From positions 21,762,001 to 21,826,000 of the forward strand of contig NC_079164.1 of NCBI RefSeq assembly GCF_947568905.1: a DNA stretch of 64,000 bases. Reading direction: 5' to 3'. Below the pieces are notes generated by a model. That model worked only from the letters and a program-made list of their open reading frames with translations, made no database searches and was not told where the DNA came from. Below, piece by piece: positions 524 through 61,400 of the stretch; the first letter of the stretch is position 1, and the number at the start of each line of letters is the position of its first letter. The position numbers were made by a program, and so were the translations under genes. This DNA comes from Ostrea edulis (Eukaryota).

Positions 524-793
524 ATCCCATGGGCATCCGGGTGAGAATAGGTCTTTGAACAGTACCCCTTGCTTGTCGTAAGAGGCGACTAAATGGGGCG
601 ATCCTTCGGATGAGATCGCAAAAACAGGTTCTGTGTCACAGCAGATGTGGTACGATAACGATCCTTCCCTGCTCAATGACCGTAAGCGCCGAGTATATAG
701 GCGTAAATTTTGCAGCCCTTCGCGGCAATGGCAAAGTCTCCATATGAGTGAAAATTATCGAAAGGGACGTTAAACAATACACAACCAACCAAC
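524..793 (+). mobile_element. SINE, family A (non-tRNA head plus shared core)
   Basis: 12-bp TSD cagaataaaccc at 512-523 and 794-805. Core tgtgtcacagcagatgtggtacgataacgatcc...gggacgttaaac is shared with other SINE copies here. Ends in a (caac)n tail. Confidence 0.85.
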
Positions 794-8400: not shown

Positions 8401-10443
8401 ATACATGCAATATTCATTTATCGCAGAGAGGAAGGACTTCCTTAATGCGTGTTTGAATTGTTGCGCACATGAATTGAATGAACGATATCTTTAATTCAAA
8501 TGAATTTAAGAACAATCTTTTAACCATTGCGTGCATTAGTTATGTTATATTTATTGTTATCATTGGGGAAAAACTGACTTAGATCCGCCACTTCACTTTT
8601 GTTTTTGCTATTTCAGGGTAGTTTATCGAAAACGAAAGTAGGTTTTTCATTAACATTACGATATTTACTAATCAAGTAAGATTCAATTATAAAGCTAACG
8701 GACTTCACCTCACATATGAAACAATATTAAAGGTGCAAGCAGTAACTCTGGAGCAAGCGTTTCGAGGTTTATTGGCAAAAGTTGTTAATTCTTACTTATA
8801 GATTTTCCATCTGTGTATATGACTATTTTCCTATAAATAAAGATGTGTAACTAAACATTATACTTTTGCATGCAATTGCAGTGATTTGTGTGATAGTGTA
8901 CGGTGTCTGAAAAGAAAAGGCATGGTTCCGGATGAGATATCTTCAGTGAATTTACAAAAAGATCTGAAAGAAAACTTGATAGCTGCTTGGGACTCCTGTG
9001 GTATAACAATTACAACTTCATTAATTTATTCGAGTATTAATTACCAGTTGCGGTAGCTCAGTGGTAGAGCGTTCACTTTGTAACTGGGAAGTCGTGAGTT
9101 TGAGCCCCGCTCGTGCCATGGCCGCGTCAAACCTACATGTGTAAGACGTAAATCTAGGTATAGTGATTGCTCCTTCACCAAACGCTCGGCATTTAGAAGT
9201 GAGAATCACGGGTCTTTCGGATATGACCTTAAAACTGAGGTCCCGTGTAGCGACAGGCGTTGGCATGTTAAAGATCCCTCACTGCTACGGCCCTGAGCGC
9301 TAAGCGTAGGTCTAAATGTGTGCTACTTCAGCTACAGTCTCAATATGAGTGAAAAATTCACGACGGGACGTAAAAAAAAACCCCAATCAATTAAATACTA
9401 TATTTTAGTATTGTCCATACTTTTATAGCATTTATTGGCATGAAACCTCTCTGTTATTTCAGTATCTCAGGATTGTTTTATTTATTAATGAATGGTGAAT
9501 TTGTAATGATTTCAACATCTGTGTTTGTTGAATAATGTATGTTCTCTAAAAACATTTAACAATCTTCCCTTGAAGTAATGTTCTTTTCATTAAATGTAAC
9601 ATTCTATAATCATACAAGTGGAAGACGGTTATAGAAGAAAAGAAACACCAACAGAAAACCCGATCCTCATTTCAAAAATAGTAGAAAGTGGAAATGCAAC
9701 ATCCGATATGACGTCATCTATTCTTGTCAACAAAAATATCGACGATGTGAAAGGTGTAAGCACTGCAAATGGCGTATATTTGTCATCAACTGTGACGTCT
9801 GCATCCACAGCAACTGTACCATCAGATGAAATCAGTAATGCGATGGGTAACACGATTGTGTTTCCCACTAAATCCCCAGCGACAGGTAACCCAGCATTGG
9901 TCGGACGAAAAAGCACAGACGAGATTATTCTGGAAATATCTGATGAAGAAAGTGAACTTCCCGTTGTCAGTTTCGACACACAACCCGAATCTTCCACATC
10001 TAATGGTAAAACCGGTAGACTAACAACTAACCCTTTCCTACACGTAAAGACTTCTCTGAGGCCTATCAATCCTACTCTTGGATATGAATCTACGACTCCT
10101 TCATTAGGTATGCGCATGAAATCCTAACTAGACATTTTTGTCGGAGCTGGCTTATAAGAATATATCTTATGATCAGATTAAATTTAAATCATAATAATGA
10201 TGATGTATTTTCAAGAGATACAAAGTCGGTCAAAGACCACGATCACGACATCTGGACCTGAACTTAGCCAGGGACTACACAACGGTACGTTCATATTTGA
10301 AATAAGAGTTTTGATGATCTGTTATGTAATCTTCAATCAGTGTTGATGCGTTATTTTATTTTACAGGTTCTCCCAGTGTCAGTTCCTTGGACATTGTTTT
10401 GTACGTGACAGCATTGATCAGCGTCTGGTATGCTGTGTTATAG
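2464..10443 (+). CDS. Gene A: secreted, putatively GPI-anchored Cys-rich modular protein with Ser/Thr stalks (about 573 aa)
   Basis: Exons 2464-2491, 2715-2847, 2977-3107, 3196-3283, 3469-3602, 3775-3859, 4327-4619, 7967-8042, 8882-9000, 9619-10107, 10216-10284, 10367-10443. All introns are GT-AG and phase-compatible, total 1722 nt with no internal stop. N-terminus MTPLQLIAFGVLFLRSDA-QPWNC looks like a signal peptide; C-terminus HNGSPSVSSLDIVLYVTALISVWYAVL* looks like a GPI signal. The donor at 3284 (gttcgt) and the acceptor at 9618 are weak. Confidence 0.8.
4948..7098 (-). CDS. TRIM-family E3 ligase (RING, B-box1, B-box2, coiled coil, NHL-like beta-propeller), single coding exon, 716 aa
   Basis: RING CPVCLESFTHPKYLPCLHTVCEQC...CPVC; B-box1 CDGC...WCSECQEALCNTCSNYH...HH; B-box2 CAHHQDKRVEMLCKYHEALCCIICVTSSHKQC; heptad region; C-terminal YGVALG-type repeats. 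AATAAA on the minus strand at 4778-4783. Confidence 0.95.
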   Translation of the reverse strand: MDSSDSESKSVTHCPVCLESFTHPKYLPCLHTVCEQCIDIYVNSMQKAFRRNPQHSGSESGFNCPVCKMFVPCSDKDPKVWARNLPDNTMINNLIEKHKIKKKSETCDGCKSRGDVIKAESWCSECQEALCNTCSNYHKTNKSLKHHRMFNVKDLEEEPILFRFTDEEFCAHHQDKRVEMLCKYHEALCCIICVTSSHKQCDSVLSIEEMAHGIRESGEIAHLGNQLKHANCEIQEIIRDRKENISDFTQQHQRMENDISKLRQDINRHLDELEQRCKKNMNVIYNENLADMNAQVEQLQNREKAITNCQKVLQTCVKHGTDYKLFLEMNKLKRQIREHEDHLQRQKNSTKRIEFSFSLSSPATNFRHYLTTIADITVKTSPYPNIETPYTTYVTSTPRASRRSSPMTSFQSIDLDISSSSRRIELNESYSDRNESRRSSLESELLQLSLSASDLIGVKEADLSKTIYVNKLKIIDATFLPDGRIMLIASNDQNWRLYVYTSKGSLEKEIRLRCQPGGIAVLSELESAVTFPAEQIIQFIDNKDFSMAKDMKIRGHCRQICNTNNKMVIVCETEVKLFNGTSVRTIPISGVEILCICLSAKDRLYYTVQSDSSLHCLSTTGHELFKYSHGDLVCPYGVALGRGDRLVYVAGYKSQNVHQITPDGHLLTIIVTRGDVMSGPQLLAINQNREEFLQVWEQMYGNFIYIYDMPKNETTP
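8066..8330 (+). mobile_element. Interspersed repeat, probable 3' remnant of a Penelope-like or other non-LTR element
   Basis: Motif ggcggatgtgacccgtcaacaggggatgcttattcctcttaggcacctgatc...gattgatcac recurs inverted at 25838-25980. The family assignment is from recall only. Confidence 0.5.
9044..9394 (+). mobile_element. tRNA-headed SINE, family B
   Basis: A box tagctcagtggtagagc, B box gagtttgagccc, shared core gtcccgtg...ggcatgttaaagatccctcactgct, A-rich/caat tail. Homologous to 55972-56297 and 57750-58097. Confidence 0.85.
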
Positions 10444-25532: not shown

Positions 25533-25806
25533 TATCGAGATTGATTAAGTATTGTTTAACGTCCCTCTCAAGAATCTTTCACTCATATATAGACGTCACC
25601 ATTGTCGGTGAAGGGCTGCAAAATTTAGGCCTATGCTCGGCTCTTACGGCCATTGAGCAGGGAGGGATCTTTAAATATCGTGCCACACCTGCTGTGACAC
25701 GGAGCCTCGGTTTTTGGGGTCTCATCCGAAGGACCGCCCCATTTAGTCGCCTCTTACGACAAGCAAGGGGTACTGAGGACCTATTCTAACCCGGACCCCA
25801 GGTGGG
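25533..25806 (-). mobile_element. SINE family A, full length
   Basis: Complete head and core on the minus strand; (caat)n tail at about 25533. Confidence 0.85.
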
Positions 25807-26313: not shown

Positions 26314-27510
26314 CGGGTACCTGTAAAGTGCGAAACGAAATCGAAACGAAACGAAATCTACCGAAACGAAACACCGAAACGAAACGAAACCTACCGAAAC
26401 GAAACGAAACAGATTGTATAACCGAACTCTTTTAATTATAATAATTAAAATGGTATCTTAGGCCCCTGTGAAAGTTACCACATAAAAATAAAATTCGCCT
26501 CCCCTTTGATGTAGGCTTTCAGCTTGACTGTTACAAAGTTTTAAAAGTTGGAAAGGGGGGAGTAAGCACAAAGTACATATCCGTAGTTGATTAAATGCCA
26601 TGTACAATTAGTTTCGGATCCATACATTTCAGAACCGAGGGTTACAGTCTCAGAGATCTGGGGAAACACACTATACGAGGGGTGGGGTCGCCGACGTTGG
26701 ATCCGCCTTTGGGCATAGAAACATTGTTTGAAGAAGCTGGTGTTTGAGAAAATTGAAAGCAGGAAGAGCTCTTAACCTCTTATTTTATCTCTAACTGCTG
26801 AGGTGCGAGTACTTTCAATAATGGAAAAAATCTATACATTTGGGATGTTGCTAAGACGGGGAATTGAAAACGGGACGGAAAACGGAATTTTTTAAATGCA
26901 ATAATATTAGGAGGAGGTCGGCATTTTGTAAACTGAAAAGGCTTATGAACAAGGGGATTTTAAGCAGAAATCACAAAGAGAACGGGAGGACATATTCAGA
27001 ATCCACCGTTTGATATACTACATACAAATACACAATATCCACATGTATACATATATTTGTCTTTAGAGCAAAAATACTGAAACATGTATTTATGCCCAAA
27101 ATCGGATTCAACGACGACGACCCCATCCCTCGTTTAGTGTGTTTCCCCAGACCTCTGACCTGTGAGACTGTAACCTTCCGTTCTGAAATTTATGGATCCG
27201 AAGCCAATTGGACATGGTATTTATGTACTTTGTGCTTACCCCCCCCCCCCCCCCCCCCCCCAACTCTTAAAACTTTGTATCAGTCAAGCCGAAAGCCTAC
27301 ATCAAAGGGGAGGCGAATTTTATTTATATGTGTAAACTTTAACAGGGGCCTAAGATACCATTTTCAATTATTATAATTAAAAGAGTTCGATCATACAATC
27401 TGTTTCGTTTCGTTTCGGTAGGTTTCGTTTCGTTTCGGTGTGTTTCGTTTCGGTAGATTTCGTTTCGTTTCGGTAGATTTCGTTTCGTTTCGCACTTTAC
27501 AGGTACCCCG
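26314..27510. mobile_element. Foldback-type element with ~400-bp inverted arms containing (GAAAC)n
   Basis: cgggtacctgtaaagtgcgaaacg... versus ...cgtttcgcactttacaggtaccccg. Arm similarity continues to about 26720/27088. ttaaaa direct repeat at 26308-26313 and 27511-27516. Confidence 0.85.
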
Positions 27511-29494: not shown

Positions 29495-31662
29495 TCATGC
29501 AAATGTCTTTCCATCCAGTGCCACATCTCCTCTTTTCAAGTTGGTGAATGTTACATAAAATCTGCCATCAAACAAAATAAATGTAACATATTAAAATCAT
29601 TACTATACAATAATGCTGACTGCAGCTGTGAAAAATTAAAAATTTCTTCATAATTCTATTCAGGTATAAATAATGTTTAGTACTAAAGGGACTGGTTCTT
29701 TTTGAAAAAAATATTTTGCATTTTTGATGTTAAACATTAAAAATATTTAACTCATTTAATGTTGACAACCAAAATTTTGACCTTCTGAAGGCAAGAATGA
29801 AAGCAATATTTTAGGCTTAAATCTGTGTTATGTAAACAAAGACTTGAGTCTTTTTATGTATACAAACAAAGCAGTGAAATATTAATTTTGTAATATAAGC
29901 ATCTTAATTTTGCATAGTCGCAAATTTTAAATTTTAGATGACAGTCTACCCAAAGAATGCTTGAAATGTGAAAGATATAATAAAATATATCCATTCTTTT
30001 TTAAAAACTTTTGTAAACAATAATATACTGCAATCTTTGTTTACAAAACAAATAACAAACTCAGATTACTCTCTAAAATGAGCTTCTGTGATAATGTATA
30101 ACCTTAATTTTTATGTGAAATCTTTTAAACACATTAAACAGCAGGTTTTGATCATTAAAAGTGAAAAACAAAATTTTGGGGAAAATCGTGAATCAGTCCC
30201 TTTAAAGACTTAGCAAACTCTATCCGCTAGTCAAAACAAATTCAGTCCAGGTAAAATCTCTGCCACAATAGCATGAAAGCACCTACTCATTTTCAAACAG
30301 ACATACTGCAACAGATTGGTTAAATATTCGCCAGCCAATACACAAAATTTATAGTCAGAAGAGTTATTTGCCCTTATGTAATGCATTTGAACATACTATC
30401 CAACTGATGGACCATATGGAAGAGCACCAACTATTAGTAAGTTTTATTTCTAGGCATATGTCCGAATCAATTTCTAGTGGATGTAAAATTTAATTTTCTT
30501 TCAACCTCTTGATTTTACAAGCCATTAATCTAAAATCAAAGTACAGTAAAGCACTGCAGTAACAAACCTCCAGGGCCAATGGAAAGCATTCCTTATAACC
30601 TAACTTCGCTATTAATATCCGATAAAAAAAATTTCCTCAAGCAAGTAGTCTATGATCTAGCAAGCATTTCTGTGAAAAATTTAAGTATTTTCAGCAACAT
30701 TTGATTATTCTGCCATGAAGTGCGAGTACAAAGTGTAGCAAAAGAGGATTAACACGCAGTCCTCTAGTACTCAAAATAGCATGTATTTAAATTGTGTGTG
30801 TGGCTCATCATATACCTGTTCTTTGGTATGGATAATTTGCTTTCCAAAAATTCTGCAATGGCTAAAGCATGTTCTTTATTTTTCGCCCCATCTGAAATGT
30901 TGTACAATTCCACAAAACCACAGAGATCCGACGACCCCCCGTGCATCATCATCTGGTCTGGGTGCAGCCGCACTGTTACATACTGAAAATAGACATACAC
31001 ACAGTAGATTTAAAGAGCTGTAACAATTTCAAACATCATCTTAACTGTTTTTGACAGCTTTTAGCATTTGCCTCTGAGAGTTTCACCTTTGATGAATAAA
31101 ATTGTGATTTTGGATCTTCTATCTAGTCTGCTATTCTATTTCGAATTATCTATATAATCAAGAGTATAACTAAATTAAAATTAACATCAAAGCCCAAAAG
31201 TATGCATCTATGGCCAATATGCACTTCTTCCTGTCTGTCAGTGTGTTTATCTTATATCATGGAAAGAAGCCAAACAAATTATATATATAGAGAAATATAC
31301 ATTAAAATCAATTTATAAGGAAGTATATGTGCTACATATCTACTGTTCATACCAAAAAACTGGCAGCCATTACATCAAACTGATTGGATTCGCGAGTCTG
31401 ACCAATACATACACATGCCACCTCCATGTTAATGGCATTTCAAAGTCCAAGCTATCACCTTATTTATCAGACCTCAGTTATCACCTAGACTACATTTATA
31501 TGAATTGAAAACTTTCATACAAAGTGTAATGTGTGTTGAAAGTGGTTAGTTGAGCTGATACTAAAACATATAAATTTGTGTGATTATAGAATTACGGTTA
31601 GTTTGTGACAAGAAAATCATTTCTATAAAGTTTATGCTGATTGATTGATTTTTAACGTCATG

Positions 31663-31695
<33 letters not shown>

Positions 31696-34600
31696 AGCTG
31701 TAGGTGAACTACCACAAATTTAGACCTGTGATTAGGCTCTCTGGGCCATAACAGAGAGGGTTCTTTAACATGTCAACGCCTGCCTTAACACAGGACCTTT
31801 GTTTTTGCTGTACTTCAAGTTTAACCCATATTATGACTCCACCTTAGCCAAACGGGGGTTATGACTAAACCCAACTTGAATCAACACAACATAAGGATGC
31901 CCTATATATACTCTGCTACATTCATATATCATGTAAAAATTTAATCTTGATTCTAGTCCCATCCAATGGTCCATATTAAAAAAAAAAAAAAAGATTTTCA
32001 AATTTTCCCCCATGCATACATTCTTATGTAAAACTTCAAATAGGTATTGTGGCCCAAACCCTCGAGGCATATTGATGTGAAAAAAAATCTGCACTGCCAG
32101 AGGGTGTTTGGAATTTGATATATTGTGACTAATTCTGGCTCTGCTGTTAAGAATGAGATTTTATATAAAGATTTATTCTTATGCAAAACTTTGATCACCT
32201 ATTGAGTCCATCCTACCCCCGGGCCAGGATTTGGATAAACTTAAATCTGAACTGCCTAAGGATGCTTTCTTATTGATGACTAATCAAGTCTCTGACACTA
32301 TTGACGAGAAGATTTTTAAGTTTTAAAGTAGACCTATACTCGGCCTATGCACAATCAAATGTAAATGCGGAACCACGCTTCCGTTTTCCGAAATGTGATA
32401 TTTTAACGATATCCATTTGATGTTTACATGGCGATACGAGATATGAATATCCGATATCAATTCCTTCCTGGGTGTTCTTATTTTCCTATCAGTCAAATCT
32501 TAAGTTGAGACTTTGTGGTGTGTTTTTTTTTAAAAGGGGGAGATAGAGATTATAGCTTTAGAAAAAAATCGGTTGGAGAACAAACAACATGTTGGTGGAT
32601 GAGGGTGTGTCAATTACATTGTACATGTCCGTGAGGCATTCAGTGTACATTGACTATTTATGTATGGAAAAGTTTTACTATGATCCATTAAATGTTCACT
32701 CAGCTGCCACATTGCTACATTCTTCTCCTCTAAAAAATTACATCCTCGTCATTCTCTGAGAAGAATATATATATGTATAAGTTATTTACAAAAGCATGTG
32801 GACAGTTTTCTGTCACACAATTCATGAAAATGGAAGCATCAAGTCTTCTTAACAATTTCAAGAAGAGTCTTCAAAATCTCATTTCTTTCAAAGCCTTGGC
32901 ACTGTTTGTCTTGCAGAATGCTTTGAAGAAATCTCGCTTTCTCGGACCAATGCGGGTCAATAGTTCCCTGCTGAAGCCTTACAAAGTTTCCACTTCGTAA
33001 CCATGCTGACTCCTTTCTGGGTCTGGTCGATCTGCGTGGAGCAGTAACAGGTGAACTTGTATCCGTATCATCTGTTTCTGGTTCAGCATCAGCTACTGGT
33101 TCAGTTTCAGATTCTGGATCTTCTGCTTGTGGCGCAGGTTCCATAGCAGTCTCCTCTTCTGCATGATCTTCAAAATGCTCTCCAACCTGATGTGCATCCT
33201 CATCTGTTGGGAAATCTGCATTCTCTAGTCCAGGTTCTCTCCTTTCAGTAACACAATACTAGGGGCATCAATGTGATGACGTTGTGTTCCTCTAGGAATT
33301 TCCCATAAGACTGCTTCCTCCTCATCTGTATCAAATTGAGTTTTTGCAGTTGACCGAGTGTCACTGTCTTCCCTTTTCCATTGTCTGGTTATAGGTTTTG
33401 GTTTTGGCTTCAGCGTTGGTGGAACTGAATACTCTGGTGTTGCATCCATCTTCGGTTGGAATTCTAAAAGATGTCCAATTGATAGCAGTAAGTTTCTGTG
33501 CAGAATCCTCACTCTTCAACACCATCCTCCCTCTGTACTTTGTAAACAGGGATGTCTTGATTGGGCTGACTAATCACTATGTATGGGTCTTCTTCCCACT
33601 TGTCCGACAATTTGTGGCGTCTGTCAAATGCTACCACTTTGACTAGCACTCTGTCTCCTGCTTCTACCACAACTCCTCTAGACTTGAGATCATAATTGTC
33701 TTTTTGTTGTTCCTGTGATTTGCGTGTAGCCTCTGATGCTAACTGGTAGGATTTCCTCAGTCGCTCCTTTAGGTTGTCTATATACTTGGTAAGAGATTTT
33801 GATCTTTCATTCCGTCTATCTAATCTGAATTCTATGTCTATTGGTAAGTTAGGTTCCCGTCCGAACATAAGGTGATAAGGTGAAAATTTGGTAGTTTCTT
33901 GTTTCATGCAGTTGTATGCATGTACAATGGGAGCTATGTAAGATTTCCAATCTGCTTTTCTTAATTGTTCTAAAGATCCTAACATGTTGTGTAGCATGAT
34001 GGTGGTTTGTAATGTAGTAACAACCAACTCCTGTTGCAGTCATTTATTGCATGATAAAACGAATAAGGATGATGCTAACGATGATTATGGAATTGCGGGG
34101 CATCAGAAAGTGGGGGAGACAGATGGGAAAGGAGGTCAGACCAATTCAGATTTCCACGAACATCATGATAATATTTCTTTTGTGAGGATCCGGTGTTAGA
34201 ATAGGTTTCAAATTATCATCAACAAATACATGGTACGCTTGTGTAAAAAAGAAAAGTTCACATTTCGCTGCTTCAGTGACCACAGATATCGTAGTTGTGT
34301 TCGCTGTTACAATGTTACTGATATAGAGACAAGCTTCAAAGATCAGCTGCAAATAATCTGTTTTATTTCACCGACCGTCATGAATTTGTCATTTTTTCCT
34401 CATCCTCTCTCCTTTTTCAAAATTATTGGGGCGGCATCTATTAGTTCCTTATTGAGATTGCATCTACTTAGAACGGCGTAAGTGGTGTACATGTGCAAAT
34501 ATCCAATTTATGTACATGTAATTGTAAATGATTTCATGACCTGTAGAGATTCAAATAAAACTTTGTCTCAGGACATAAGATATATCACACATTATACATA

Positions 34601-37600
34601 TTCATTAATCATATAAGCAAAATCATCAAAATTCAGTTTGTTACTTTCGGTTTACATTTACATTGTGCAAATTAAACCTCTCTAGAATACTGTAGAATCA
34701 TTTAAATTCATGAGGACATAATTTCGTGGATTTATATATTTGTAAGAAAGATGACTTGGAATGTCTTTATTCGTTGAGGATGTAAATTCGTGGGTGAGGG
34801 TTACCCACGTATTCCACGAAAATTGAGCCAACACGAATTCTAATGATTCCACAGTATTTTTTTTCAGATAAAATGTAAAATTTAATTGTAAACCACATGT
34901 ATCTTATAATAGTTATAGTTTAGCATAGTTCAAATTATTATTCAAGGTTGTAAATATGCTCAAACTTCACATGTCTTACGAAAATATGATAATGTATAAT
35001 TTTTCAAGATTTTAAGGGGGGTGTACTTGTTGTAGAGCTGATAGCTAGCTTCTAAATTAATACATCAACATATGATTTTCTTACTCAAATCCTTATTCTA
35101 AGATAATAATCTGTAAATCAAAAACAATTAATTCAAGGTTTAGTCCATAAAAATTAGGGAAAAGACTAATATTGACGTCAAATGGCATTTCCTACAGTAT
35201 TTCCTTTAACATGTTTGGGCTCACAAAGTATACATTGTGAAAATATTTATTCCAATTCATTAGAACAAATGATTACATATACCATTAAATAAAGGGTATA
35301 TAGTCTATGTTGCTTATTATACAGCCCATTTGTTTGGGAAAATAATAATTAATAAGAAAAATAAAGAAGGAGGAGTGCATTTTCCTTAATGTTGACAGGG
35401 TTCTTACTTTTGAGAAGCAATAACAATGAAAATAGCATGTCAACATACATGTATATATTTTTCAATGTTTATCTATTACTGGAATGTATATTTATCTTGT
35501 AAAGGCAATTTTTTCATGATTTGAGTGCATTTAAGGCCGAGTATAGATCTACCTTAATCTCTTACATGTTTTTATGTAAGACTTGGTGTACAATGTAACC
35601 CCTAATGTGCCCTCCTCCCCCATCCTTGGAGGGGCCAATGGTTTCAACCAATTTGAATCTGCACAACCTGAGGATGCCTGCCTAATAGCATCTATCAACA
35701 TGACTAAACATGGCTTAGCTGTTCATAAGACGACAAGCTCACTAAAGCTTATATAGCTCAGGTTCATAAGACGACAAGCTCACTAAAGCTTATATAGCTC
35801 AGGTGAACTAAACACTGAGATGATATGTCAAAGCTGTTACTTCAAATATTCCCTACATCCCCCTCTGTCCAAATATCTAATTCCTCATTTCCAATTACCA
35901 CACTAGCAGGCCTTCCATTCACCTACACTTCCTAAGTCCTTCTGAGTGCTTTGCTACCCTGACATGTTAACTTTTGATAGTGCTTCTCCACAAAATTTCT
36001 GTGATATATATTTTAGTTTACCACAAGATCCTTAAAACTAGATTACACGTCTGACACAAAATATTTCTTTATAATATCTAGCTTCAACCTGTCTTGAGCA
36101 TTTTTTCAGACTAGTGTTGAAACTAATCATTAAAGATATCAAGTGACAGGCCCCTATACTGGGTTCAAACTGTGATGTCAAAGAGTCGTATTTGCAGTGT
36201 ATCATTTTTAATGCGGGTTGATGCAACAATGTTATCTTAATTTATAAACGCTTTCAATCAAACTAATGTTTAGCATGTGTAGGTCAATGCCATGCGATAT
36301 CTTTCCAGAGATCATATGTGTCTGATATTTGCCATTTTTATCAAGTTTTAAATATGAAAATTGCAATGTTCCTTAAGTCTAATCATTTAACAACAGACAT
36401 GAAAGGGCACTAATTTTTTTCTGACTTTGATAAAGGAGCCTTTAACATTTTCTCATTAATCCAACCAGTCTCTTGTTGAAAAATTAGTGAAAAATCATAT
36501 ACACCGATTGGCTGGTTACATATGTACACATCTTGAACTTTAATTCACACATCTGTCATGGTGCCCTGGAGCAGTACAAATTTCATGGTGATTTGAATTA
36601 AGACTGCGGAACATTAAGTGGCAAGAAATGAAATATACAGCATTCATGATGTTCATCTCTTACATGTACAGTCAAAACAATTAATGCCACAATGCAATGG
36701 GTGGATGCTAACTCAACGCGGATTGAAAAGATCTAAGTTTATCGCCGCACATGGGTGGGAACATTTTTCAGCACAGACTCCCTTGAAAACGTTGCGATTG
36801 CATGAAATTCCAATTTCTAAATTGATTGTCAATCCACTTAGTTTTACTTTTATTGTATTAATGAATTATAATGTTAAACATTTGGTAAAACGTATTCAAA
36901 ACAAAAGGATGAGGTCTAGAAGATTACCAAGGGTTAATAATCCATCTGGCTGATCATAAAATAATGATCGGGTAATAGGCCCGCGAAATCTGCAGTCAAC
37001 ATTTAATAGCTTCCACCTCAGGTGCAAAATATCTATGCGAGATCAACTTTTTACAATATAATTCAACCACGCATGACCTGTATACTCATTAAAGCATCTT
37101 TGTACAGTTAACATTTCAAGGAAATGGTATACATGTATATGTATATGGAACTCGATTTTTCTCATTTCTCATGCATATTTATACATACTTCATAGCTATA
37201 ATGCAAAAAATCAAAAGAAACAAGAGGCCCAAGGGCCACATCACTCACCTGAGTTACTTTGGCCCATATCTGAAGACTTTCCATATATATTTGCATGTAA
37301 AACCTTAGTCCGTATTGTGACACCAACCTACCCCTGGAGGCCATGACTTGAACAAAATTGAATCTGCACTATGTCAGGAAGCTTTCATGTAAATCTCAGC
37401 TCTTCTGGCTCATTGGCTATTGAGAAGATGATTTTTAAAGATTTTCCCAATATATTTCTATGTAAAACTTTGATCCCCTATTGTGGCCCCAATCTACCCC
37501 TGGGGGCTATGATTTGAACAAACTTGAATCTGCACGATGTCTGGAAGCTTTAATGTAAACCTCAGCTCTTCTGGCTCATTGGTTCTTGAGAAGACGATTT

Positions 37601-38910
37601 TTAAAGATTTTTCCTATATATTTCTATGTAAAACTTTGATCCCCTATTGTGGCCACAATCTACCCCTGGGGGCCATGATTTGAACAAACTTGAATCTGCA
37701 CTATGTCAGGAAGCTTTCATGAAAAATTTAAGCTCCTCTTGTCCAGTGGTTCTTGAGAAGAAGATTTTTAAACGCCCCCAACCTATTTTTGCATTTTTGT
37801 GATTATCTCCCCTTTGAAGGCTCTGAAAGTTAATATAACTCACCAAAACGTGATGGGTTACTGTCCAGAGCTATCTACTCGCGGCCTGCCAATATCAGAA
37901 TCTCCTTCGCACCAAAGAGTTCCAATTCCGCTTCCTGTGGATACAACTAATAACCAAAACGAACTTATATACAGTGATGAACCACAACGGCCAATAATGT
38001 CAAATAGAAGGAACTTAACAAATTCCCCTTCTTTCTTTTTAAAGTAAAATAGTGTCATTCAAAATATACTGTACATATCTACACGATTCCTTTTTCTCTG
38101 TTTACATTTTCAAGCACTGATCCCGCCAAGCACCTGTCTCTAGTGCTTTAAATTATACTGTTGCTGAACATTAGAATTTAGCTTAGATATTTAGAACAGG
38201 AAATTTTTTTCTAGATTTCATAGCCCATGGAAGTAGTGATACTTTTTCACTAGTGGGCCTCTTGTTGAGCTACCCATGCTGTGGCGGGGGGGGGGGGGGG
38301 GGGGATTACATACGGAGGTGTAAAGTGCAGAAGGTCAATAGTGTGGGGGATGCAGTGTCTTAAATTCCCTCCAACATCAGGGTCCGCAAATATGAGGCTC
38401 TCTTTCTGCCTTTTAGTTGGTCAGTTAGATCACAGGCTTTAATGACAAATTCCCTCTAGACACAATCTTGGTAATTAACTCTGAGAATATAATCATGTCT
38501 TATGTAACAAAGGTGCAGGCATGTTTTCTCTCCCGATCTCATGGTTTTGAAACTATCTCCTGACTACAGCTACCCTGGCCTGGAGTAGGTACCTATCGGA
38601 TATCTCACTGATGTGCTAGTTGTTGGTTTTTCCCCCCACACCTTTACCATAAGACCTGCGAATATTAAGTGGCAAAAAATGAAATATACAGCATTTGTTA
38701 TGTTCATCTGTTACAGTCAAAACATTTGACGTCACAATGGGCGATTTAACAGGCGGGAACATTTTTCAGCATGGACTGAGGATTTTTAAATGAAAACGCT
38801 TGTGTTGAAATTTAATTTCATGTTGTATTTTTAACTCACCTGAGCCAAAGGCTCAATTGAGATTTTCTGATTAAAATTTGTCCGTTGTGTGTCGTCTTCG
38901 TCGGCGGCGT

Positions 38911-50013: not shown

Positions 50014-53000
50014 GGTGCAAAACATGTTTAGATGTATCCCCTGCAGTACCTGGTAGCAGCCAAAATGTATTGATGGTGTACAAGGTGTGAAGGCAGTGGT
50101 GTTATATATGACTTAATTGATTTCTGTTTGTAGTATGATGGTCAGGGATACAGTGAACAGCAGCTGATGGGGAGCAGCCAGACGCAAGGGTAAGTCCAAA
50201 TTTACTCCTTTATTTAATGGACTCTGCTGGTCAAGTTAGGAGGGATGGATTCAAAAGCAGATAATGGAAATGTCCGTGGTTGACAACCTTTGGTTAAGTG
50301 ATCTAGCAATGTTTGCATCATGCATGATGTGTTGTGGTGTTATGTAATGGAAAATTAGAAAGAAATCGTTACTGACTTCTGCAGGTTCTATTTTAAGCAA
50401 AATCTAAGATCCTATATTTGCTTGTTATTTAGATATTTAAATAATTTAGGCCAGTATTGTAAAGTACAAATGTAAAGTATATAAATCCATGTATCTGATT
50501 ATTCCAAGTAACAGTATTGATGTACTTAAGCAAGATCAGCAATATTGGATGTAGAAATGGCTCTTTTATGTTTCCCAAAACATTCATCAATATAGAGCAA
50601 TGTAAACATATGGAGACAAATTACTAAAAAAAAAAAAAAAAAAGAGATGTAATTCTCTGTTATAACTAGCTTCTGGTTATGACAGTGAGGAAAGTGAATC
50701 TGTACAATGATTGGATGTAATGAGCTTTTGTTTTTATTATCACCCAATAATGAAGGAACGTGGAATATGAGCTAAAGGTTGTTAGATGTGGAGGTGTATG
50801 TTGCATTATGGGTATACTGCATACAAAACTGTTAATCACATGTATGTCATGTTATTACGATGGATAGACATGCAAGTGATTTTTCAGTAATATTTGAATC
50901 ATTGTTATAAGCATGAAGGACTGTTTTCACCGAATCTTAAGACATAAGATGCTAAATTTAGAATTTTGAATACCAGAGTATGGGAACAGAGGACAACAGA
51001 ATGTAAGTAATGTGAATGAGTGTGTTTTCAGGGTGAATTTAGTCTTGTTTTTTCAGTTCATCAGAAACTGCAGAGATACCATACAGTGTCTGACATTGCA
51101 AAGAAATATGAAGGCCTATAAGAATTGAACATGTTCAACATTTACAGTCTTAGATTCACAGAAAAAAAAAGTTTTTTGAGCACTGGTCATTTGAGCCTTG
51201 TTTGGCAGAATATTTTTTGAGACAGCAGAAATGTTTACTAGTTCAGAGCAAATGCAAAGAATTTGATGGAACTTGTGTTCCAGCTTTAAGTCAAATTTCT
51301 TTTATGATTAAGTAATACAAATTTTCTCTCTGTTATTTACTCCAGTCATAATCATCGTTACATTTCAACCCTAGGATTAATCATTTTCACTTGAAGTTAA
51401 TTATACTGAGAAGTGATGGCCTCACGGATTTAGAGCCAGATTCCAAATCAACGGGACTGTTCTTAATATAGAAAATTGCAGTTACAGAAATAATTATGTG
51501 AAAAAGTTTGATTTAGTGCTCCTTCTGAACCTACATTTGTAAGAAGAAAGATTTGCAGAACTTATTGGCACATTGATATAGTGAATGGCATTTATAAGTC
51601 TACAGCAGGATCAAAATATGATTGATTGATTGAATATTGTTTAACGTCCCTCTCAAGAATATTTCACTCAGGGCTGCAAAATTTAGGCCTATGCTCGGTG
51701 CTTATGGACCCACAGGATCAGAATAAAATAAACTCATTGGAACATAGAATTTTGTAGTGTATTCCTATATAAATAGATCGTAGCTCTTAAAACTAAAATA
51801 TTCATTGCAATTGCATATTTATTATTGATTAATGGGAAAGAATTTTAACCAGCAAGAATAGCAGGGGTATGAGAAATTGCTTGTTACAACTTAGATAGGT
51901 TCATAAGATCTAATTTGATGTAATTTTTAGCTCATTAACAACTGTATTCTTAATTCTGCTTGAATTTCATATATGCCTGTATGAAGACATTATAAAATGT
52001 TAAATTGTAAACCAACTTTTACTCGCAACAACTTTATTTTGTGATTTACTAGTGATGAACTGGTTTGCAGCTAGTGACAAATTTTAACGACCAATATAAT
52101 CTTAAAATGACAAGAAACGTTAAATATCTAGTTCGCAGCAAGAAATATTCGTGATTAAGAGGTTCTCACGAACCTTGCGAAAATTTCTTGTACGCGAATA
52201 AAAATTGGTTTACAGTATACGATTGTAGGAATGAAAAATTTCAAGAATGTGCATATAATATCTTTATATGTACCATGGTAATATTAGATTTTTTCTGTGA
52301 GAATAATTGATTATATCTTGTATGATACCGTAGAGATGTTAATGGCAGGCTTTGATGATTAGTTTCAAAATCTGTGACAATTTCACGCATTGTTTCTTGC
52401 TGTCAACTGATCTAATTGTTCAGGAATATTTTTGCATGCTTGGTGATGGTTCGTTCACTTTTACTAACACATTTTTATTTCCAGCCATCCACTGGTGGGG
52501 GCATCTGCAATCTCTGATCAGAGTGGATGGTCAGGAGAGACTGTCGTATCCTCCAAATCTGCCAAGGATCCACGGTATAAACACCAATCCTCAAAATTTG
52601 AATCCATAAAAATATTAGAGATGCAAACAACAATATCATAAATGTAAACAAAAATATTATGGATTTGAAAACATCATGAATATAAATAACAATATTGTAA
52701 ATGTAAACAACAATAGTGTAAGTGTAAACAACAAGATTTTAAATGTAAACAACAATATTATAAATATATGAATAACAATATTGTAAATGTAAACAACACC
52801 ATCCTAAATATAAACAACAATATTATAAATGTAAACAACAATATTGTAAATGTAAACAACAAGATTTTAAATGTAAGCAACAATATTGTATATTTAAACA
52901 ATGTTATTAATGTAAACAAGATTATAAATGTAAACAGCAATATTGTAAATGTAAACAACAATATTATAGATGTAAGCAATAATATCATAAATGTAAACAA

Positions 53001-55389
53001 CAATATGGTGGATGTATACAGCATTATAAAAGATGTAAACAACAAGATTGAAAATGTAAACAGCAATATTATAAATGTAAACAGCAATATCATAAATGTA
53101 AACAACAATATTATAGAGGTAAACAATATTATAGGTGTAAACACTTAATATGACTGTCATAAATAATCCAAGGTATCTCAATTAGTGGCATAAATGTAAA
53201 TATATATAAGATCCATGTAATTATTTTTATTATAGGACTAGGTCACTGGCACTTATACTCTTATATATAGTAATTAGGCCCCAAGCAATATAAGTGCCTG
53301 TGGACTAGATATACTGCAATTTCTTTGGCTTTGATTTATTTGGATACATTCTTTTACTAGCATGAGAGCAGTCTAAATGCATTGTTTGTATGTTTGGATA
53401 ATAGATTACCTATATGTGCTTGCATTGAATTTCTGACTTGCATCATGACGTCAACCTTATTATTCATTGTCATGTCAACATCATTATCATTAATATTTAG
53501 AACTGTGATGCTACGCAAATGGAAAATTTTTAGATTTTTAGTGTTTTTTAAAAAAAAAATTGACGAAAAATATATAGGAAATTAAGAAATGTAAATATTG
53601 CCATATGATAAATCAATCATTGCTTTTTTGTTTTATTGATTATTAATTAATAGTTTAAAATTTTCAATCTGAAAACATAATATTAACTAAGGAGAACATG
53701 CATACACCAGCTCCATGGAATAAACATATGACAACCAGTGGCAATAATTGTAAACAAAAATAAAATATTTAGTCATTATCTAGTGTAATGAGCTAGGCTA
53801 CACCACTGAAAGATCCCTAGAACCACCACAGAGTGGTATACATTACCTGGCTCAGTAGCAATTTATCCCTAGAACCATCACAGAGTGGTATACACTACCT
53901 GCCTCAGTAGCAATTTATCCCTAGAACCATCACAGAGTGGTATACATTACCTGGCTCAGTAGCAGAGGGCTTTCTCGACATCTGGAAGAGCCAGCTCGCG
54001 CAGCTAGTCAATCTTGACTAGTAGCATCGTCTCATTCGCTAATTACTCCAAAGGAGGTCTGCGAATTATTCAATAGAACTAGAGCTACCTTAAAAAGATT
54101 CAAGTTTGCTGATACCGTATATAGTCTAAATGCATAATTAGGAATAGCAGAAAATGATGTACAAAAATGATGAATTTCGGGGTTTGACTCTAGGATGGGT
54201 TCAAATTACCTAGTCATATCATTTATAGTTGATACATACAGAATGTATATCATCTGATGTAAAGCCTTTCATCAGTGTATGCACTTTTGAGGGCATTGAA
54301 GTTTTAAAAACATATATTGCTTTATACTGTCACTGGATATTAGAATTTAGCTTAGATATTCAGAACATGTAGGAATTTTTTTTCTAGATTTCATAGCCCT
54401 TGAGACTAGTGATACTTTTTAAAAGTAGTACTCAGGAGACCGTTAAGGCTTGTGGGCCTCTTGTTTAGAATTAAAATTGAATTTGGTAAAATACATCGGC
54501 TTGACCTGTACTTATTATTTTACATGCACGAGGTACAAATGGCGTCCGATAATAGTTAGACAGTTGTTAACCTCGAGTCTGACAATAACAATAATGAACT
54601 TAATCTGTTTAAACTACAGAGCCAACAGGCATCTTACCGTTCGGCAGTCATCTTACCGTTCAGCAGTTTGGAAACAGTTTGCTTTTAAGATTGTGACTAT
54701 GAATCTTCTTGATTAAATTTTTCTTCGATGTTATTATTTTTTCTTCTTCTGTAAAATGTATCGTATTGGAAATATTAAATTGTGGCATAAGTATTGCAAT
54801 ACGTATTGTATCGTGAAGGGGGAGTATTGTTTCAGCTTTATAACAACTGCTTATCATATCACTCCATTACTGGATTACTGGTATATTCTAATATGTTGAC
54901 GGTGCTACCATTAGGACAAACTAAGCTACCGATAAATGAGCATATCCAGAATTTTTTTTTTTTTTTTTTTTGGTCTTTGCAAATTCACTTGTGTTTCCGT
55001 AACCTTGCATTGATTTGGTATAATAAATAATTTATTGCATAAATGATTGGAAAATATGAAGATCTATTCACCCAAGAAAAATCATATTGCCCTCCCTCAG
55101 GGAATATATGATTTTTCTTGGGTGAATATATCTTTATATTTCCTTCATTATCATATGGAATAATTATATAATATATGATAAACAATCGGTGACATCAATG
55201 GAACCATACTTAATAGTCCCGGTCAGTATCATTACTAATCCACATATTGATATATATATATTTTTTAAACACACACTTATAATCTACTCTGTAACTCTCA
55301 GTTTCATAATGACTAACCTAGTATAGTTATACTGTGTAATCGTTGCTGATAATACGTGTAACATTAAAGCCTACTGTGACATTATAGTT

Positions 55390-55425
<36 letters not shown>

Positions 55426-58400
55426 TCGTGGTCATTATTCTGCCATATACCTTCCTGCGTAATAACGGATTATGAAAAAATTGATACACATCTCACTTGG
55501 TTTCGTGCTTTGTTAATAACACAATAAAGTCAATAACTGATAATTCCATTTTATACTCATACAAAATAATCAATACCATACAAGTGGAATTTTTAGCGAG
55601 ACACTTTAGCGATTTTTCAATAAAAATAATCATGCATATTTAGCGAGATCTAATTTTAGTGACTATAATTCCAGGAAAGATAACTATTACCGCCAATATG
55701 GAATAAATTGTTAGCGATATTCAATTTTAGCGACCTCATCACTTTCGCTAATAATGTCAAAATTAAATCTTCGCTTAAAATTCTGCATGTAAGGTACATT
55801 ATGTATCTGTTGTAAAACAGATGTATAAACGACGAAGAATATTTGTCATTCAATGTAAATTAATTGTCTACATTCAGAGATCGATACATCATCAGGCGAT
55901 GCGAAGACAAGTTAACCTTTTTCCATTTATGTGTATATAGTTTTCTTGGACTGTGCATTCAAAGCAGTTGAACCGGCCATGGTAGGTCAGTGGTATAGAG
56001 CCGGGAGGTCGTGAGTTCGAGCCCCGCTCGTGTCATGGCCGCGTCAAACCTAAGACGTTAAAATGGATAGTGATTGCTCCTTTACCAAACACTCGGCATT
56101 TACATGTAGAAAAGAGAATCACGGGTCTTTGGATATGACCTTAAAAACGGAGGTCCCATGTCGCGGCAGGCATTGGCAGGATAAAAAAAACCCTCACTGC
56201 TACGGCCCTGAACACTAAGCATAGGTCTAAATTTGTGGCGCTTCACCTACAGCTGGTGATGTCTCAATTTCTCAGCAGAACGCAAAAAAAAAATCAATCA
56301 AAGCAGTTGATATGATCTCTCAACATCAAACTAATTACTTGAAATGCTTTTCAAAATATATCTCACCTTTTTCGTCAACAAAAAACATGAAGCCTATTTC
56401 TGAGTCGTAGTAGAATAGAAATAAAGTTTTTATCTTCGTGTATGTTGCAGGATAATCTCCTCGGTCTCAAAATGGTGTTTTGAAATATAAAAGCGTCGGC
56501 TTTTATATTTCAAATCAACATTTCTCTACCTCAGAGGTTATTCTGCAATAATACACGAAAACAATAACTTTATTTCTTAATCAAGTTTTATAAACCACCA
56601 TTAGTCGCAGACTCTTGGTGGTTAAAGGTGCATGCATGTATATGATATACCGTTTTTTATGATTTAAGTAAAATAGAAGTTTATATGTCTAGATGACTTG
56701 ACTTCACTGGTTCCTGCATCAGTTTTATTTCTCCATCCTAGAGAGGCTACATATAGCTGCAGAGACTGTTGATGGTGTGACCCATTAATGTCAGGGTCTG
56801 AATGCACTTTTTAAAATAGTTCTCTATACCAATGATATGTGATGCAAACAATGGTCTATATCATATGTTTATGTAACTATTCTTTGCTTAAACCAGGAAC
56901 CAAAAATATTGATTCCTGTGTCAATAGTGACCAAAAAATGCAACTACGTACCAATTCTAATGTATTATTTACATAGTTTTGAATGTTATATGTAAAGCCT
57001 ATGATGCGCAGCAAAGAAAATGTTTGTAGAAGAGGTCAATTATGTAACTTACTTCTTTGTTCTGTTCATATTCATAGTATGGCCATTACTGGACGTAAAC
57101 TTCCATGCTAACTGATGTAAACTTCCATGCTAACTGATGTAAACTTCCATGCTAACTGATGTAAACGTCCATGCTTGCTTAGAATGTCGAGTGTAGGCTA
57201 TATTTACCAAGTACTTTGACCAGATTTCAGTTTTTAGAGATGGTCACAGTTTCTGGACCTTGTCGTATTTTGTTCTGCATGCTTCATTAGTCTTCATGTT
57301 GTGAAAGTGAAAGTCACGTGATGTTAGTGCACTGTACTGAACATGGTTTTCTTATGTCAAAAATTAAACTGTTCAAAGGTGTTTTTGTTTTACCAGTACT
57401 GTTATAGTCAATTGTTTTGAAAGCTCCGGTGAGCTTTTTTGATCGACGTTTCTCTGTCTGTCCGTACATCACCTGTTCAAATTTCACATTTTAACTTCTT
57501 TTCAAGAACCATTTTGGCCAATTTCATCCAGCCTTGGCCCAAATTATTCTTGGGTAAAGAGGATTCAGGTTTGTTCAAATGATGCATTGACACCTTATAA
57601 GGAGAGACAATGAAGAAATACTAAAATGAGGTTGGGTTTTGAAAAATCTTCTCAAGAACCTCTGGATCTGAAATTAAGTCGTAACATTTATAGAATCTTC
57701 CTTATATAGTGAAGATTTAAGGTCGTCAAGCAATGTCTTTATCCTTGGATGGATCGATTGATTATTTTACGTTCCATCGAGAATTTTTCACTCGTATTGA
57801 GACGTCACTAGCTGTATGTGAAGTACCACAAATTGAGACCTCTGCTTAGCGCTCAGGGCCGTAGCAGTGAGGGTTCTTTATCGTGCCATGCCTGCCGCGT
57901 CATGGGACCTCCGTTTTTAAGGTAATATCAGAAAAACTCGTGATTCTCACTTCTAAATGCCGAGCGTTTGGCGAAGAAGCAATCACTATCTATTTTAACA
58001 TCTTAGGTTTGACGCAGTCATGGCACGAGCGGAGCTCAAACTTATGACCTCCCTGTTACGGAGCGAACGCTCTACTACTGAGCTACCACGACGGGTGTTT
58101 ATCCTTGGAGCCAGGACTGGGCTACGATGGGGTGTAAAACTTTACATAGGAAGATGTTTAAGGGAGAAATTTTCTCAAGAATTACAATAAGGATGTGCAA
58201 ATATCTTCCTGTAGAGTAAATTCAATTCTTAAAGAGGATGAACACATTGTCACAATTGTTCAAACTGAGTTATATACATGTATGCCATTGTGGCAAAAGA
58301 TAGATCAGAAATATATTCTTTGTCCTTTGAAAATTCATATTCTGCTTCAGCTTAGCTCAATGGATTAGGATGATAGCTATAGCTCAGCATCTCTAGATCA

Positions 58401-61400
58401 TGTGTTTGGGTCGCACAGGGGTTTTCATCTTAATTACACTAAAATTATAATTGTATGCTACATCAGACAAAATTTTAAAGTCCCAAAACAACTCATTATT
58501 ATACAGATCCTATAGCTTTCAGTCATGACAGTTTTTATCGGTGTCATGTACCCCCTATAAAAGAAACATCTTCTCAACCACAGGATTATTGATTGATTAA
58601 TTGTATATTGTTTGACATCCCTCTCAAGAATTTTTCACTCATATGGAGATGTCACCATTGCCAGTGAAGAGCTGCAAAATTTAGGTCTATGCTTAGCGCT
58701 TATGGCCTTTGAGCAAGGGGGGATCTTTATCGTGCCACACCTGCTGTGACACGGGACCTCGGTTTTTTGTGGTCTCATTCGAAGGGTCATCCCATTTAGT
58801 CACCTCTTATGACAAGCAAGGGGTACTAAGGAACTATTCTAACCTGGATCACCACGAGAAACCACAGGAAAATGATGTTCAAATCATCCAATTTATGTAT
58901 TTATATTTTTTATCCATGAGTCGGTGATACCTTTGGTTATATAGATCTTGTTACTATTTTTGTACAGTCCATTTATTGAACAAACTCTGATTGCTATAGA
59001 TTAAAATTAGCACATATGAATGGTTTATTGATGACATGAAAATCACTAGTATGATATTTTTGTTTGTTTCTTTTTTAGATGGTGGAGACATCCAAAAATC
59101 AAAGAGAACTACAGGACAGTGTGTGGAGCTGTTTCATTGACCGTTGTGGGAACAGGTGGGTTCTATTCATTCATTAGATAGTGGGGCCCATTTTACAAAA
59201 CAACTTATGACTAAAGTTGCAAGTCTTAAATTTTATTACACTTTTATTACTTTGAGTGAATGAAGTAAAACTTTTTGAGGCTTAATTTTCAACAATTTTA
59301 AAAAAAAAAGCATTTGGAGTGAATGATCTTACAATAAACAGGAAAATTCCAGTATGTAAAGTTGGTCGTTAAGTCGTAAGTTCTTTTGTAAAGCGTGCCC
59401 CAGGTTACTAGATGTAACAGATAAAGTAAATGTTTCTTATGAATTCATAAGTACAATGCCTTTTTTATTTTTTCTATGTTCAGCATTGTTCTTGGTTGGC
59501 ATTGGGATAGTGGCTTCACCAGATCGAGGTAAGCTGTTCACACTCAGCCTGTCTTAACTTGTACATATACAGTAAAACTCTCTTATGATGAACATATCTA
59601 TAAAAAAGAACTTGTGCTTATAACGAGCACACTTATAAGGAATCCATGCTTATTGCAAAGTGATATTTAGTCCTCTACAAGAGGAACATTTTTTTTTAAA
59701 AATGTTTTTGGATGTAACGAAGTTTGGTTATAATGAACTGTTTTTCGCTGGCCCGGGAGGTTTGCTATAACTGTATTTTACTGTTAGTATTATTAAGAAT
59801 AATAATAAGAGCAGTTGGATTTTAAAGTCCCAAACTGAACAAAGAGAAAGGAGACCTACTGCTTGATTGCACATTATTGCAGACTGGAGCATCGGTCTAC
59901 ATTAACTCTTCACTGAGCATCAGACTCGGTGGTCGGAAAATATCGAGACTTTTGTATGTTAGACGGCTAATTATACCATTAGTGAAATTAATTTTGATAC
60001 AATTCTTTAATTTATTTTAGCATTTTAAGAATCCTTACAAGTACTAGTCTCACAATCTGTGCCTTTTGTCCTTATTGTAGGATATTTGCATTATTTTATC
60101 AACAAATTCAATTTTAGTTTGCTTTATTTTACTAAAGCATCAATGGAATTTCTGTAATTACACATGCATAATAATAAAATCCCTTATTCGACATTGTGTA
60201 AATTTTATATATACTGACTATCAGGCTGTCCTTGACATTGTGTAAATTATATATACTAACAATATTGGACTGTCCTTGACATTGTGTGAATTTGATATGT
60301 ATTGACATTGAGACTGTCCTTGACATTTTATGAATTTTATATGTACTGAAAATGAGACTGTCCTTGACATTGTGTGAATTTTATATGTATTGACATTTAG
60401 ACTCTCCTTGACATTGTGTGAATTTTATATATACTAACAATATTGGACAGTCCTTGACATTGTGTGAATTTTTTATATACTGACAACAAGACTGTCCTTA
60501 ACATTGTGTGAATTTTATATGTATTGACATTGAGACTGTCCTTGACATTGTGTGAATTTTATATATACTGACAATGAGATTGTCCTAGACATTGTGTGAA
60601 TTTTTTATATACTGACAATGAGACTGTCCTTGACATTGTGTGAATTTTATATGTATTGACATTGATACTGTCCTTGACATTGTGTGAATTTTATATATAC
60701 TGACATTGAGACTGTCCTTGACATTGTGTGAATTATATATGTATTGACATTGAGACTGTCCTTGTCATTGTGTGAATTTTATATATACTGACATTGAGAC
60801 TGTCCTTGACATTGTGTGAATTTTCTATATACTGACAATGAGACTGTCCTTGACATTGTGTGAATTTTATATGTATTGACATTGAGACTGTCCTTGACAT
60901 TGTGTGAATTTTATATATACTGACATTGAGACTGTCCTTGACATTGTGTGAATTTTTTATATACTGACAATGAGACTGTCCTTGACATTGTGTGAATTTT
61001 ATATGTATTGACATTGATACTGTCCTTGACATTGTGTGAATTTTATATATACTGACATTGAGACTGTCCTTGACATTGTGTGAATAATATATGTATTGAC
61101 ATTGAGACTGTCCTTGTCATTGTGTGAATTTTATATATACTGACATTGAGACTGTCCTTGACATTGTGTGAATTTTCTATATACTGACAATGAGACTGTC
61201 CTTGACATTGTGTGAATTTTATATGTATTGACATTGAGACTGTCCTTGACATTGTGTGAATTTTTTATGTATTGACATTGAGACTGTCCTTGACATTAAG
61301 TGAATTTTATATGTATTGACATTGAGACTGTCCTTGACATTGTGTGAATTTTTTATGTATTGACATTGAGACTGTACTTGACATTGTGTGAATTTTATAT

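Follow-up and report, generated by a model that had tools for sequence, protein, structure and literature searches.

Sequence comparison identifies the ~75-nt head of a SINE in the window (the whole 64-kb stretch of DNA analysed here) as a portable RNA module common to the 5' end of a LINE and the 3' UTRs of viruses. Covariation strongly supports the pairing of this head into a 5' H-type pseudoknot followed by a conserved hairpin, from which its three-dimensional fold is predicted. An RNA motif common to retrotransposon 5' ends and viral UTRs has apparently gone undescribed so far: in the literature searched, mostly without subscription papers, figures and preprint supplements, we found no description of the fold or of the viral occurrence, the motif letters returned 0 papers, and LP-SINE terms matched only PMC4758252 and unrelated papers. 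We consider it probable that this is an undescribed class of structured RNA that moves among LINEs, SINEs, RNA viruses and a DNA virus and makes the 5' ends of retrotransposon RNAs post-transcriptionally, without a promoter, being either the first retrotransposon-borne exoribonuclease-resistant RNA (xrRNA) or a new class of self-cleaving ribozyme. As to the activity itself, the head may well work as an xrRNA that sets the 5' end of the element, a reading that our analysis leaves evenly balanced between right and wrong.

LP-type SINEs of the window and their relatives

The original prediction had placed four copies of a SINE without a tRNA head in the window, and all four are present. A full LP-type copy lies on the forward strand at 524-793, composed of head, body and a tail with a short tandem repeat, and it is bounded on the same strand by a 12-nt target-site duplication (TSD) whose left arm at 512-523 is repeated on the right at 794-805. 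The other three lie on the reverse strand: a second copy at 25533-25806, for which no TSD was seen and whose head (25731-25806) scores 70.2 bits with our own model R1; a third at 58586-58859 (head 58784-58860, 61 bits) with a 10-nt TSD at 58860-58869 and 58576-58585; and a 5'-truncated copy at 23783-24005 (37 bits) without the first ~35 nt of the head and without the pseudoknot. Both TSD-bounded copies do begin 1-2 nt ahead of the first helix, as had been claimed. The head was also correctly described as unlike a tRNA, since the sole Rfam tRNA match in the window is 9047-9118; a pattern search for a strict A-box found none in the three full copies. The window copies are decayed, and the copy at 524 is altered in both pseudoknot stems.

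The proposed kinship of the body with tRNA-type SINEs stood as well. Body and tail (633-793, forward strand) are common to that group, at 76% over 168 nt against 15452-15617; against the intact tRNA-headed copies at 9047 and 57761, blastn aligns only the ~45-nt tail. The body is putatively Nin/Deu-like, a label in line with the text on Sgl_LP (PMC4758252). tRNA-headed SINEs with a related body and tail lie at 9047-9381 (forward; its segment 9047-9118 alone reaches the Rfam tRNA threshold, with 34.4 bits), 57761-58101 (reverse) and about 55980-56300 (forward), and tRNA-SINE fragments at 15350-15617, 31630-31760 and 51619-51707. The window further holds tandem arrays at 60092-61581 (44 bp), 52608-53185 (21 bp), 16177-16562 (18 bp), 13476-13686 (31 bp) and 37310-37807 (166-bp units), and a pair of inverted arms of ~350 bp at 26371-26724 and 27084-27441, separated by a 360-bp spacer, that look MITE- or fold-back-like.

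LP SINEs were described in Ostrea, Saccostrea, Haliotis and Littorina (Matetovici et al. 2016, PMC4758252, text in part), under the names Oco/Oed_LP, Sgl_LP and Lsa_2, with an Ostrea consensus of 256 bp. Two LINEs of the Nimb type and one of the RTE type (Nimb-17_LMi, I-3_DR and RTE-9_CPB) begin with the same ~70-bp LP head; LP stands for LINE-promoter, a role that the authors put forward for the head as an untested proposal. The text examined of that paper offers this promoter proposal without a structure or a viral occurrence, and it leaves two questions: the reason for which otherwise unrelated LINEs and SINEs agree in no more than ~70 nt at their start, and the means by which SINEs are expressed when they have no tRNA head. 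The window SINE is an LP-SINE and thus of a known kind, a match drawn by description, the published Oco/Oed_LP consensus being a figure, and one that makes the host likely an oyster. It has the same ~70-nt non-tRNA head, TSDs and a terminal short tandem repeat, and its body and tail are likewise common to tRNA SINEs; the AATATA hexamer that precedes the terminal repeats of LP-SINEs occurs in copies of the window family too. Scallop rows labelled 'Nimb-17 homology' in Fig. S2 of the supplement to the same paper (PMC4758252, seen in part) show, by eye, the AGAAU, UUGC and hairpin words of the window head as well as its 7-bp stem 2.

The expectation that LINE 5' UTRs would carry the head was confirmed, as a Nimb/I-type LINE in this genome begins with the same ~70-nt motif. 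Its domains are a zinc knuckle (weak), an endonuclease, a reverse transcriptase and an RNase H. Identity between SINE and LINE is limited to the first ~70 nt (76-79%) in 6/6 LINE copies (SINE positions 5-73, or 23-73 or 24-73 in three of them) and amounts to 76-87% over the aligned part; the SINE tail showed no match to the 3' end of the LINE that shares the head. This LINE family (L240 and L325-L329; G000:C1:83489900-83499800 and others) is decayed and combines the head with a 5' UTR of ~600 nt and two ORFs.

The SINE family and its non-tRNA head are real and abundant far beyond chance. Across 895 Mb in 52 contigs, an exact 18-nt head word occurs in 6,085 copies and an exact 28-nt head word in 2,837, each against 0 for the reversed control. 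Of 115 loci sampled, 89 are distinct copies whose 5' half is intact, and TSDs of at least 9 nt bound 33 of the 89; 30 of these 33 start 0-3 nt before stem 1, and 18 start exactly at -2, which makes the unpaired 2-nt leader at 524-525 (forward strand) the commonest exact start. Position -1 is a C in 19 of 20 LINE copies, read from aligned rows. The leader letters vary from family to family and no base is conserved at the 5' edge of the element, as a mechanical stop there, rather than a catalytic site, would lead one to expect. All 24 RNA runs listed consist of contigs, their RNA status partly guessed, and the 4 compared showed no start sites. Six further loci (L040, L044, L055, L059, L093 and L100) show either a partial duplication of the head at the 5' junction or a fusion to an inverted stretch of the SINE itself, and a contig from another sample holds a decayed relative of the window SINE that includes head and tail (L062).

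A covarying pseudoknot and a conserved hairpin

Since copies within one family decay neutrally, we sought divergent homologues, and obtained them from 10 metagenome loci, 4 loci in prokaryote assemblies and viral records. Three of the prokaryote-assembly loci (L102, L103 and L104, in contigs of bacterial metagenome-assembled genomes) carry heads of animal-type elements and are likely host contamination, L103 continuing like the 5' UTR of the LINE; the fourth (L105) lies inside an ORF and is likely a chance match. Metagenome loci L061, L064, L066, L068, L069 and L070 form a SINE family in which the head is followed, by eye, by A- and B-box-like words, much like the scallop fusion of LP and tRNA; ARAGORN called no tRNA behind the head in these six copies. 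Our main alignment, A2, is an unfitted MAFFT alignment of 13 representatives that are 54-90% identical, two of its rows coming from one family. Left out were L062, L067 and L102 (5' half decayed or rearranged), L103 (cut), L105, L236 (the same virus as L148), L061, L064, L068 and L070 (the same family as L066/L069), and also L104 and a partial second copy in L231, both of which are in alignment A1.

The fold that covaries keeps the first stem and the late hairpin of the predicted structure and swaps the partners of the strands between them. This swapped structure scores 0.448 over the 13 rows, vs 0.159 for shuffles and no more than 0.170 when the partners are slid; an earlier 12-row alignment gave the same order (0.309 vs 0.130). 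In the copy at 524, all on the forward strand, the 5' part of the pseudoknot occupies 526-541, in which stem 1 pairs 526-529 with 538-541; between these strands lie the U of loop 1 (530), which is invariant, and 531-537, the 5' strand of stem 2. Loop 3 follows at 542-549, with a word, AGAAU at 544-548, that is near-invariant in A2, and then the 3' strand of stem 2 at 550-556, whose pairing with 531-537 is assigned by covariation across the 13 homologues. From the general geometry of H-type pseudoknots, loop 3 is predicted to run across the minor groove of stem 1. The second domain (565-598) consists of a closing helix (565-568 with 595-598), an internal loop and a hairpin at 575-589 with a 7-nt loop; it also appears in the centroid fold of a younger copy. 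Decay in the window copy takes the form of a G-to-A change at 529 and, in stem 2, one mismatch, four G-U pairs and a short insertion after 550-556.

Stem 1 (4 bp) is paired in 88.5% of cells with double changes at 2/4 pairs, and stem 2 (7 bp, formed by loop 1 and the strand directly downstream of AGAAU) in 91.2%, where 7/7 pairs show double changes. The hairpin is paired in 98.1% of cells and nearly invariant, with 1 double change, too invariant to prove itself. The closing helix reaches 50% in the fixed alignment, where its register differs between families; with the register left free, 3-6 Watson-Crick pairs form in 14/14 representatives, which is weak evidence. Twenty columns are invariant among the 13 rows, many of them unpaired. 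At one hairpin-loop position a G-to-A variant has 580 exact genome copies, vs 309 and 337 for G-to-A at two neighbours, and the same position is G or A among viruses, a modest hint that the variant is tolerated in active elements.

As the swapped structure was drawn after the first homologues had been seen, blind checks matter. All five viral records found by the hairpin word alone have 6-7 of the 7 stem-2 pairs (5/5), and L276, L308 and L318, which came later from patterns with no constraint on stem 2, each have 7/7. Such stem-2-free patterns returned 44 loci, among which the 4 with the hairpin form 6-7 pairs and the other 40 form 0-4; 120 chance anchors gave 6/7 pairs in 1 case and 7/7 in 0. 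Nested-fold stability, by a method that ignores pseudoknots and is therefore of little weight here, has z values of 0.03 to 0.71 in genomic copies and -0.9 to -2.8 in four viral ones. The broader claim, which saw in the head a structured RNA with a pseudoknot that marks the 5' end, was right.

The specific claim, that the head resembles a pistol ribozyme cut at A|U before the last G run, fared differently, and we now give it almost no credence. P1 and P3 of that fold are supported, its junction looks pistol-like by eye, and the whole can be drawn on the oyster-type sequence with a relaxed descriptor. A pistol ribozyme has a pseudoknot of 6 bp linking the P1 loop to the P2-P3 junction, and a P2 in which the strand after J1/2 meets the 3'-terminal strand. 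The two pistol-specific helices do not covary in the head, however: the pseudoknot of loop 1 with CCCC (4 pairs) is paired in 50% of cells in the 13 rows (55% in the first alignment). The P2 of GUCCU with GGGGC is paired in 46.8%, loop 1 instead being the partner of that strand, at the level given above for stem 2. The whole pistol-like structure scores 0.162, vs 0.167 for a slid control (13 rows). Both pairings are possible in the oyster-type sequence because the four strands are G- or C-rich, and it is the divergent homologues that show the swapped partners. Of the features taken from PMC6154101 (in part), G40-C41-G42 occurs in 2/13 rows, the purine-G of A32-G33 in 5/13 and the G-U cleavage step in 0/13. 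Our own strict pistol descriptor matched 0/14 representatives and the relaxed one 6/14, within the shuffled range (3-16 of 30 each). Rfam gave no pistol match in the window at E<=1 or in 12 homologous loci at E<=10, nor any other ribozyme or cis-element match there. A pistol cut would moreover remove the 5' half, yet 89/115 sampled loci are the distinct copies with this half intact. We rejected the pistol assignment on these grounds.

The HDV-like alternative also fell. It has no Rfam match, and the descriptor matches, 2/14 representatives (sense strand) and 28/85 genomic copies with a relaxed pattern, mostly borrow a mismatched P1 strand from the host flank. The C-U-A-A word read as J4/2 is C-A-A-A in the LINE of this genome, and the nested double pseudoknot P1-P2-P3-P1.1 with a J4/2 cytosine was not found inside the element.

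The motif in virus genomes

The motif occurs in eight IMG/VR records that represent seven distinct viruses, six RNA viruses and one DNA virus, L148 and L236 being two records of the same virus. The RNA viruses are recognized by an RdRp (Pfam; L235, L237 and L308) or a capsid (Pfam; L231 and L148), and L318 by what we take, by eye only, to be a toti-like polymerase. All six carry the motif on the sense strand (6/6), at 6, 7, 11, 24, 74 and 101 nt past the stop of the last long ORF, and 89-233 nt separate it from the record end in six RNA-virus records. L231 carries the motif twice in tandem, the second time incompletely and with compensatory changes. Assembly chimeras are made less likely by the recovery of one virus in two records and by the fact that no viral record runs on into a SINE body. 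The DNA virus, a 212-kb record with an NAD-dependent ligase that is presumably iridovirus-like, holds the motif between two ORFs (L276:3000-3074), 121 nt after one and ~215 nt before another of at least 944 aa.

A 14-nt scan of viral contigs returned mostly chance matches (120 rows), gapped scans added three new records and the last scan none; phage records gave no match to the motif. Stop-codon readthrough was considered and rejected, as the distance from stop to stem ranges from 6 to 101 nt and no 100-aa ORF follows in the records with ORFs listed. Taken together, the occurrence in RNA viruses and the compensatory changes show that the motif acts at the RNA level and not only as a DNA promoter.

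Possible function and comparison with known RNA elements

A single function has to make sense both at the 5' extreme of the elements and at the start of viral 3' UTRs, and a block to a 5'-to-3' exonuclease does so. The xrRNAs known so far lie in 3' UTRs or intergenic regions, where they halt Xrn1 at the base of P1 (PMC6299227, in part); the head has a corresponding location in the 7 viruses and at 30/33 element ends, the latter standing in for RNA ends. If the head acts in this manner, a SINE or LINE copy would be transcribed passively within a host transcript, be it an intron or a read-through RNA. Once that RNA had been opened upstream, a 5'-to-3' exonuclease (Xrn1/Xrn2) would degrade it until the knot brought the enzyme to a halt 1-3 nt short of stem 1, leaving a unit-length SINE or LINE RNA that had needed no promoter of its own and that LINE proteins could then copy back into the genome. 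Acting in an RNA virus, such a block would yield a non-coding subgenomic RNA derived from the 3' UTR. We infer both the nuclease resistance and the source of transcription of head-bearing elements. Against an xrRNA, a ribozyme or an internal promoter would give just as sharp a 5' edge, and invariance extends to many unpaired bases, a trait seen in catalytic cores and protein-binding sites.

A new ribozyme class cutting 5' of stem 1 would share the position and the sharp edge and would account for the invariant unpaired columns; we hold it unlikely on balance. LINEs often use ribozymes at the 5' end (PMC5786205 and PMC6765202, in part), in six clades according to the former, the hatchet ribozyme cleaves at the base of P1 (PMC6154101), and ribozymes occur in the UTRs of linear RNA viruses, a few of them in 3' UTRs (PMC13725137, in part). 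The last source, though, places published viral ribozymes mostly in 5' UTRs, and for this reading the absence of a conserved base at the element edge and of any Rfam ribozyme match is awkward. A cut at that point would also remove the last 89-233 nt of the record in six RNA viruses.

The position of the motif directly after the last stop codon in RNA viruses invites another reading, that the module binds a host protein or the ribosome and serves the cap-independent translation or the stability of LINE RNA and of viral RNAs that are not polyadenylated, the SINE keeping it to reach LINE proteins on ribosomes. The 3' translation enhancers of tombus-type viruses lie just after the last stop codon. 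Such enhancers are mentioned in PMC6299227 (in part), and the hairpin loop is invariant across viruses and animals, the motif in the DNA virus standing 215 nt upstream of a long ORF. This reading leaves unexplained why elements start 1-3 nt before stem 1 and what would drive the transcription of a SINE whose tRNA promoter is gone, and we rate its chances as low. Lower in our estimation, and indeed very improbable, is that the head is only an internal RNA polymerase II DNA promoter derived from a LINE, as proposed in 2016 (PMC4758252, in part). Its place at the 5' end, where it replaces the tRNA promoter, and the AATATA hexamer would suit a promoter, and trypanosome Pr77, at once promoter and ribozyme (PMC4758252), makes a dual role possible; a promoter alone would explain neither the compensatory changes in both stems nor the presence in RNA viruses, which have no DNA stage. 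An xrRNA would be new, since xrRNAs are described as viral in PMC6299227 and PMC12397905 (both in part), and a ribozyme would be new, since new small ribozyme classes are rare; with either, one RNA module would be exchanged between viruses and thousands of genomic elements.

Among known systems, the pistol ribozyme resembles the head in that the loop of its first stem pairs downstream, the junction is A-rich and a hairpin comes later (PMC6154101, in part); it differs in that loop 1 of the head pairs with the strand right after the junction and not with the J2/3 strand. The HDV-like ribozymes of R2, RTE and L1Tc/ingi (Pr77) and their non-autonomous derivatives are, like the LP head, a short 5' module of unrelated LINEs that defines the 5' end of the element at the RNA level (PMC5786205 and PMC6765202, in part), whereas the head is without their nested double pseudoknot. 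Class 3 xrRNAs of Tombusviridae and Solemoviridae are likewise small pseudoknotted elements of viral 3' UTRs or intergenic regions (PMC6299227 and PMC12397905, in part), and the RNA that they protect begins at the base of the first stem, comparable to the ends of head-bearing elements. Membership of class 3 was rejected because the covarying topology differs: in a class 3 xrRNA, which has a T-loop and an AGY motif, it is the apical loop of a P1-P2 stem-loop that pairs with the 3' end (PMC12397905), whereas the head joins an H-type pseudoknot to a separate hairpin domain and occurs in retrotransposons.
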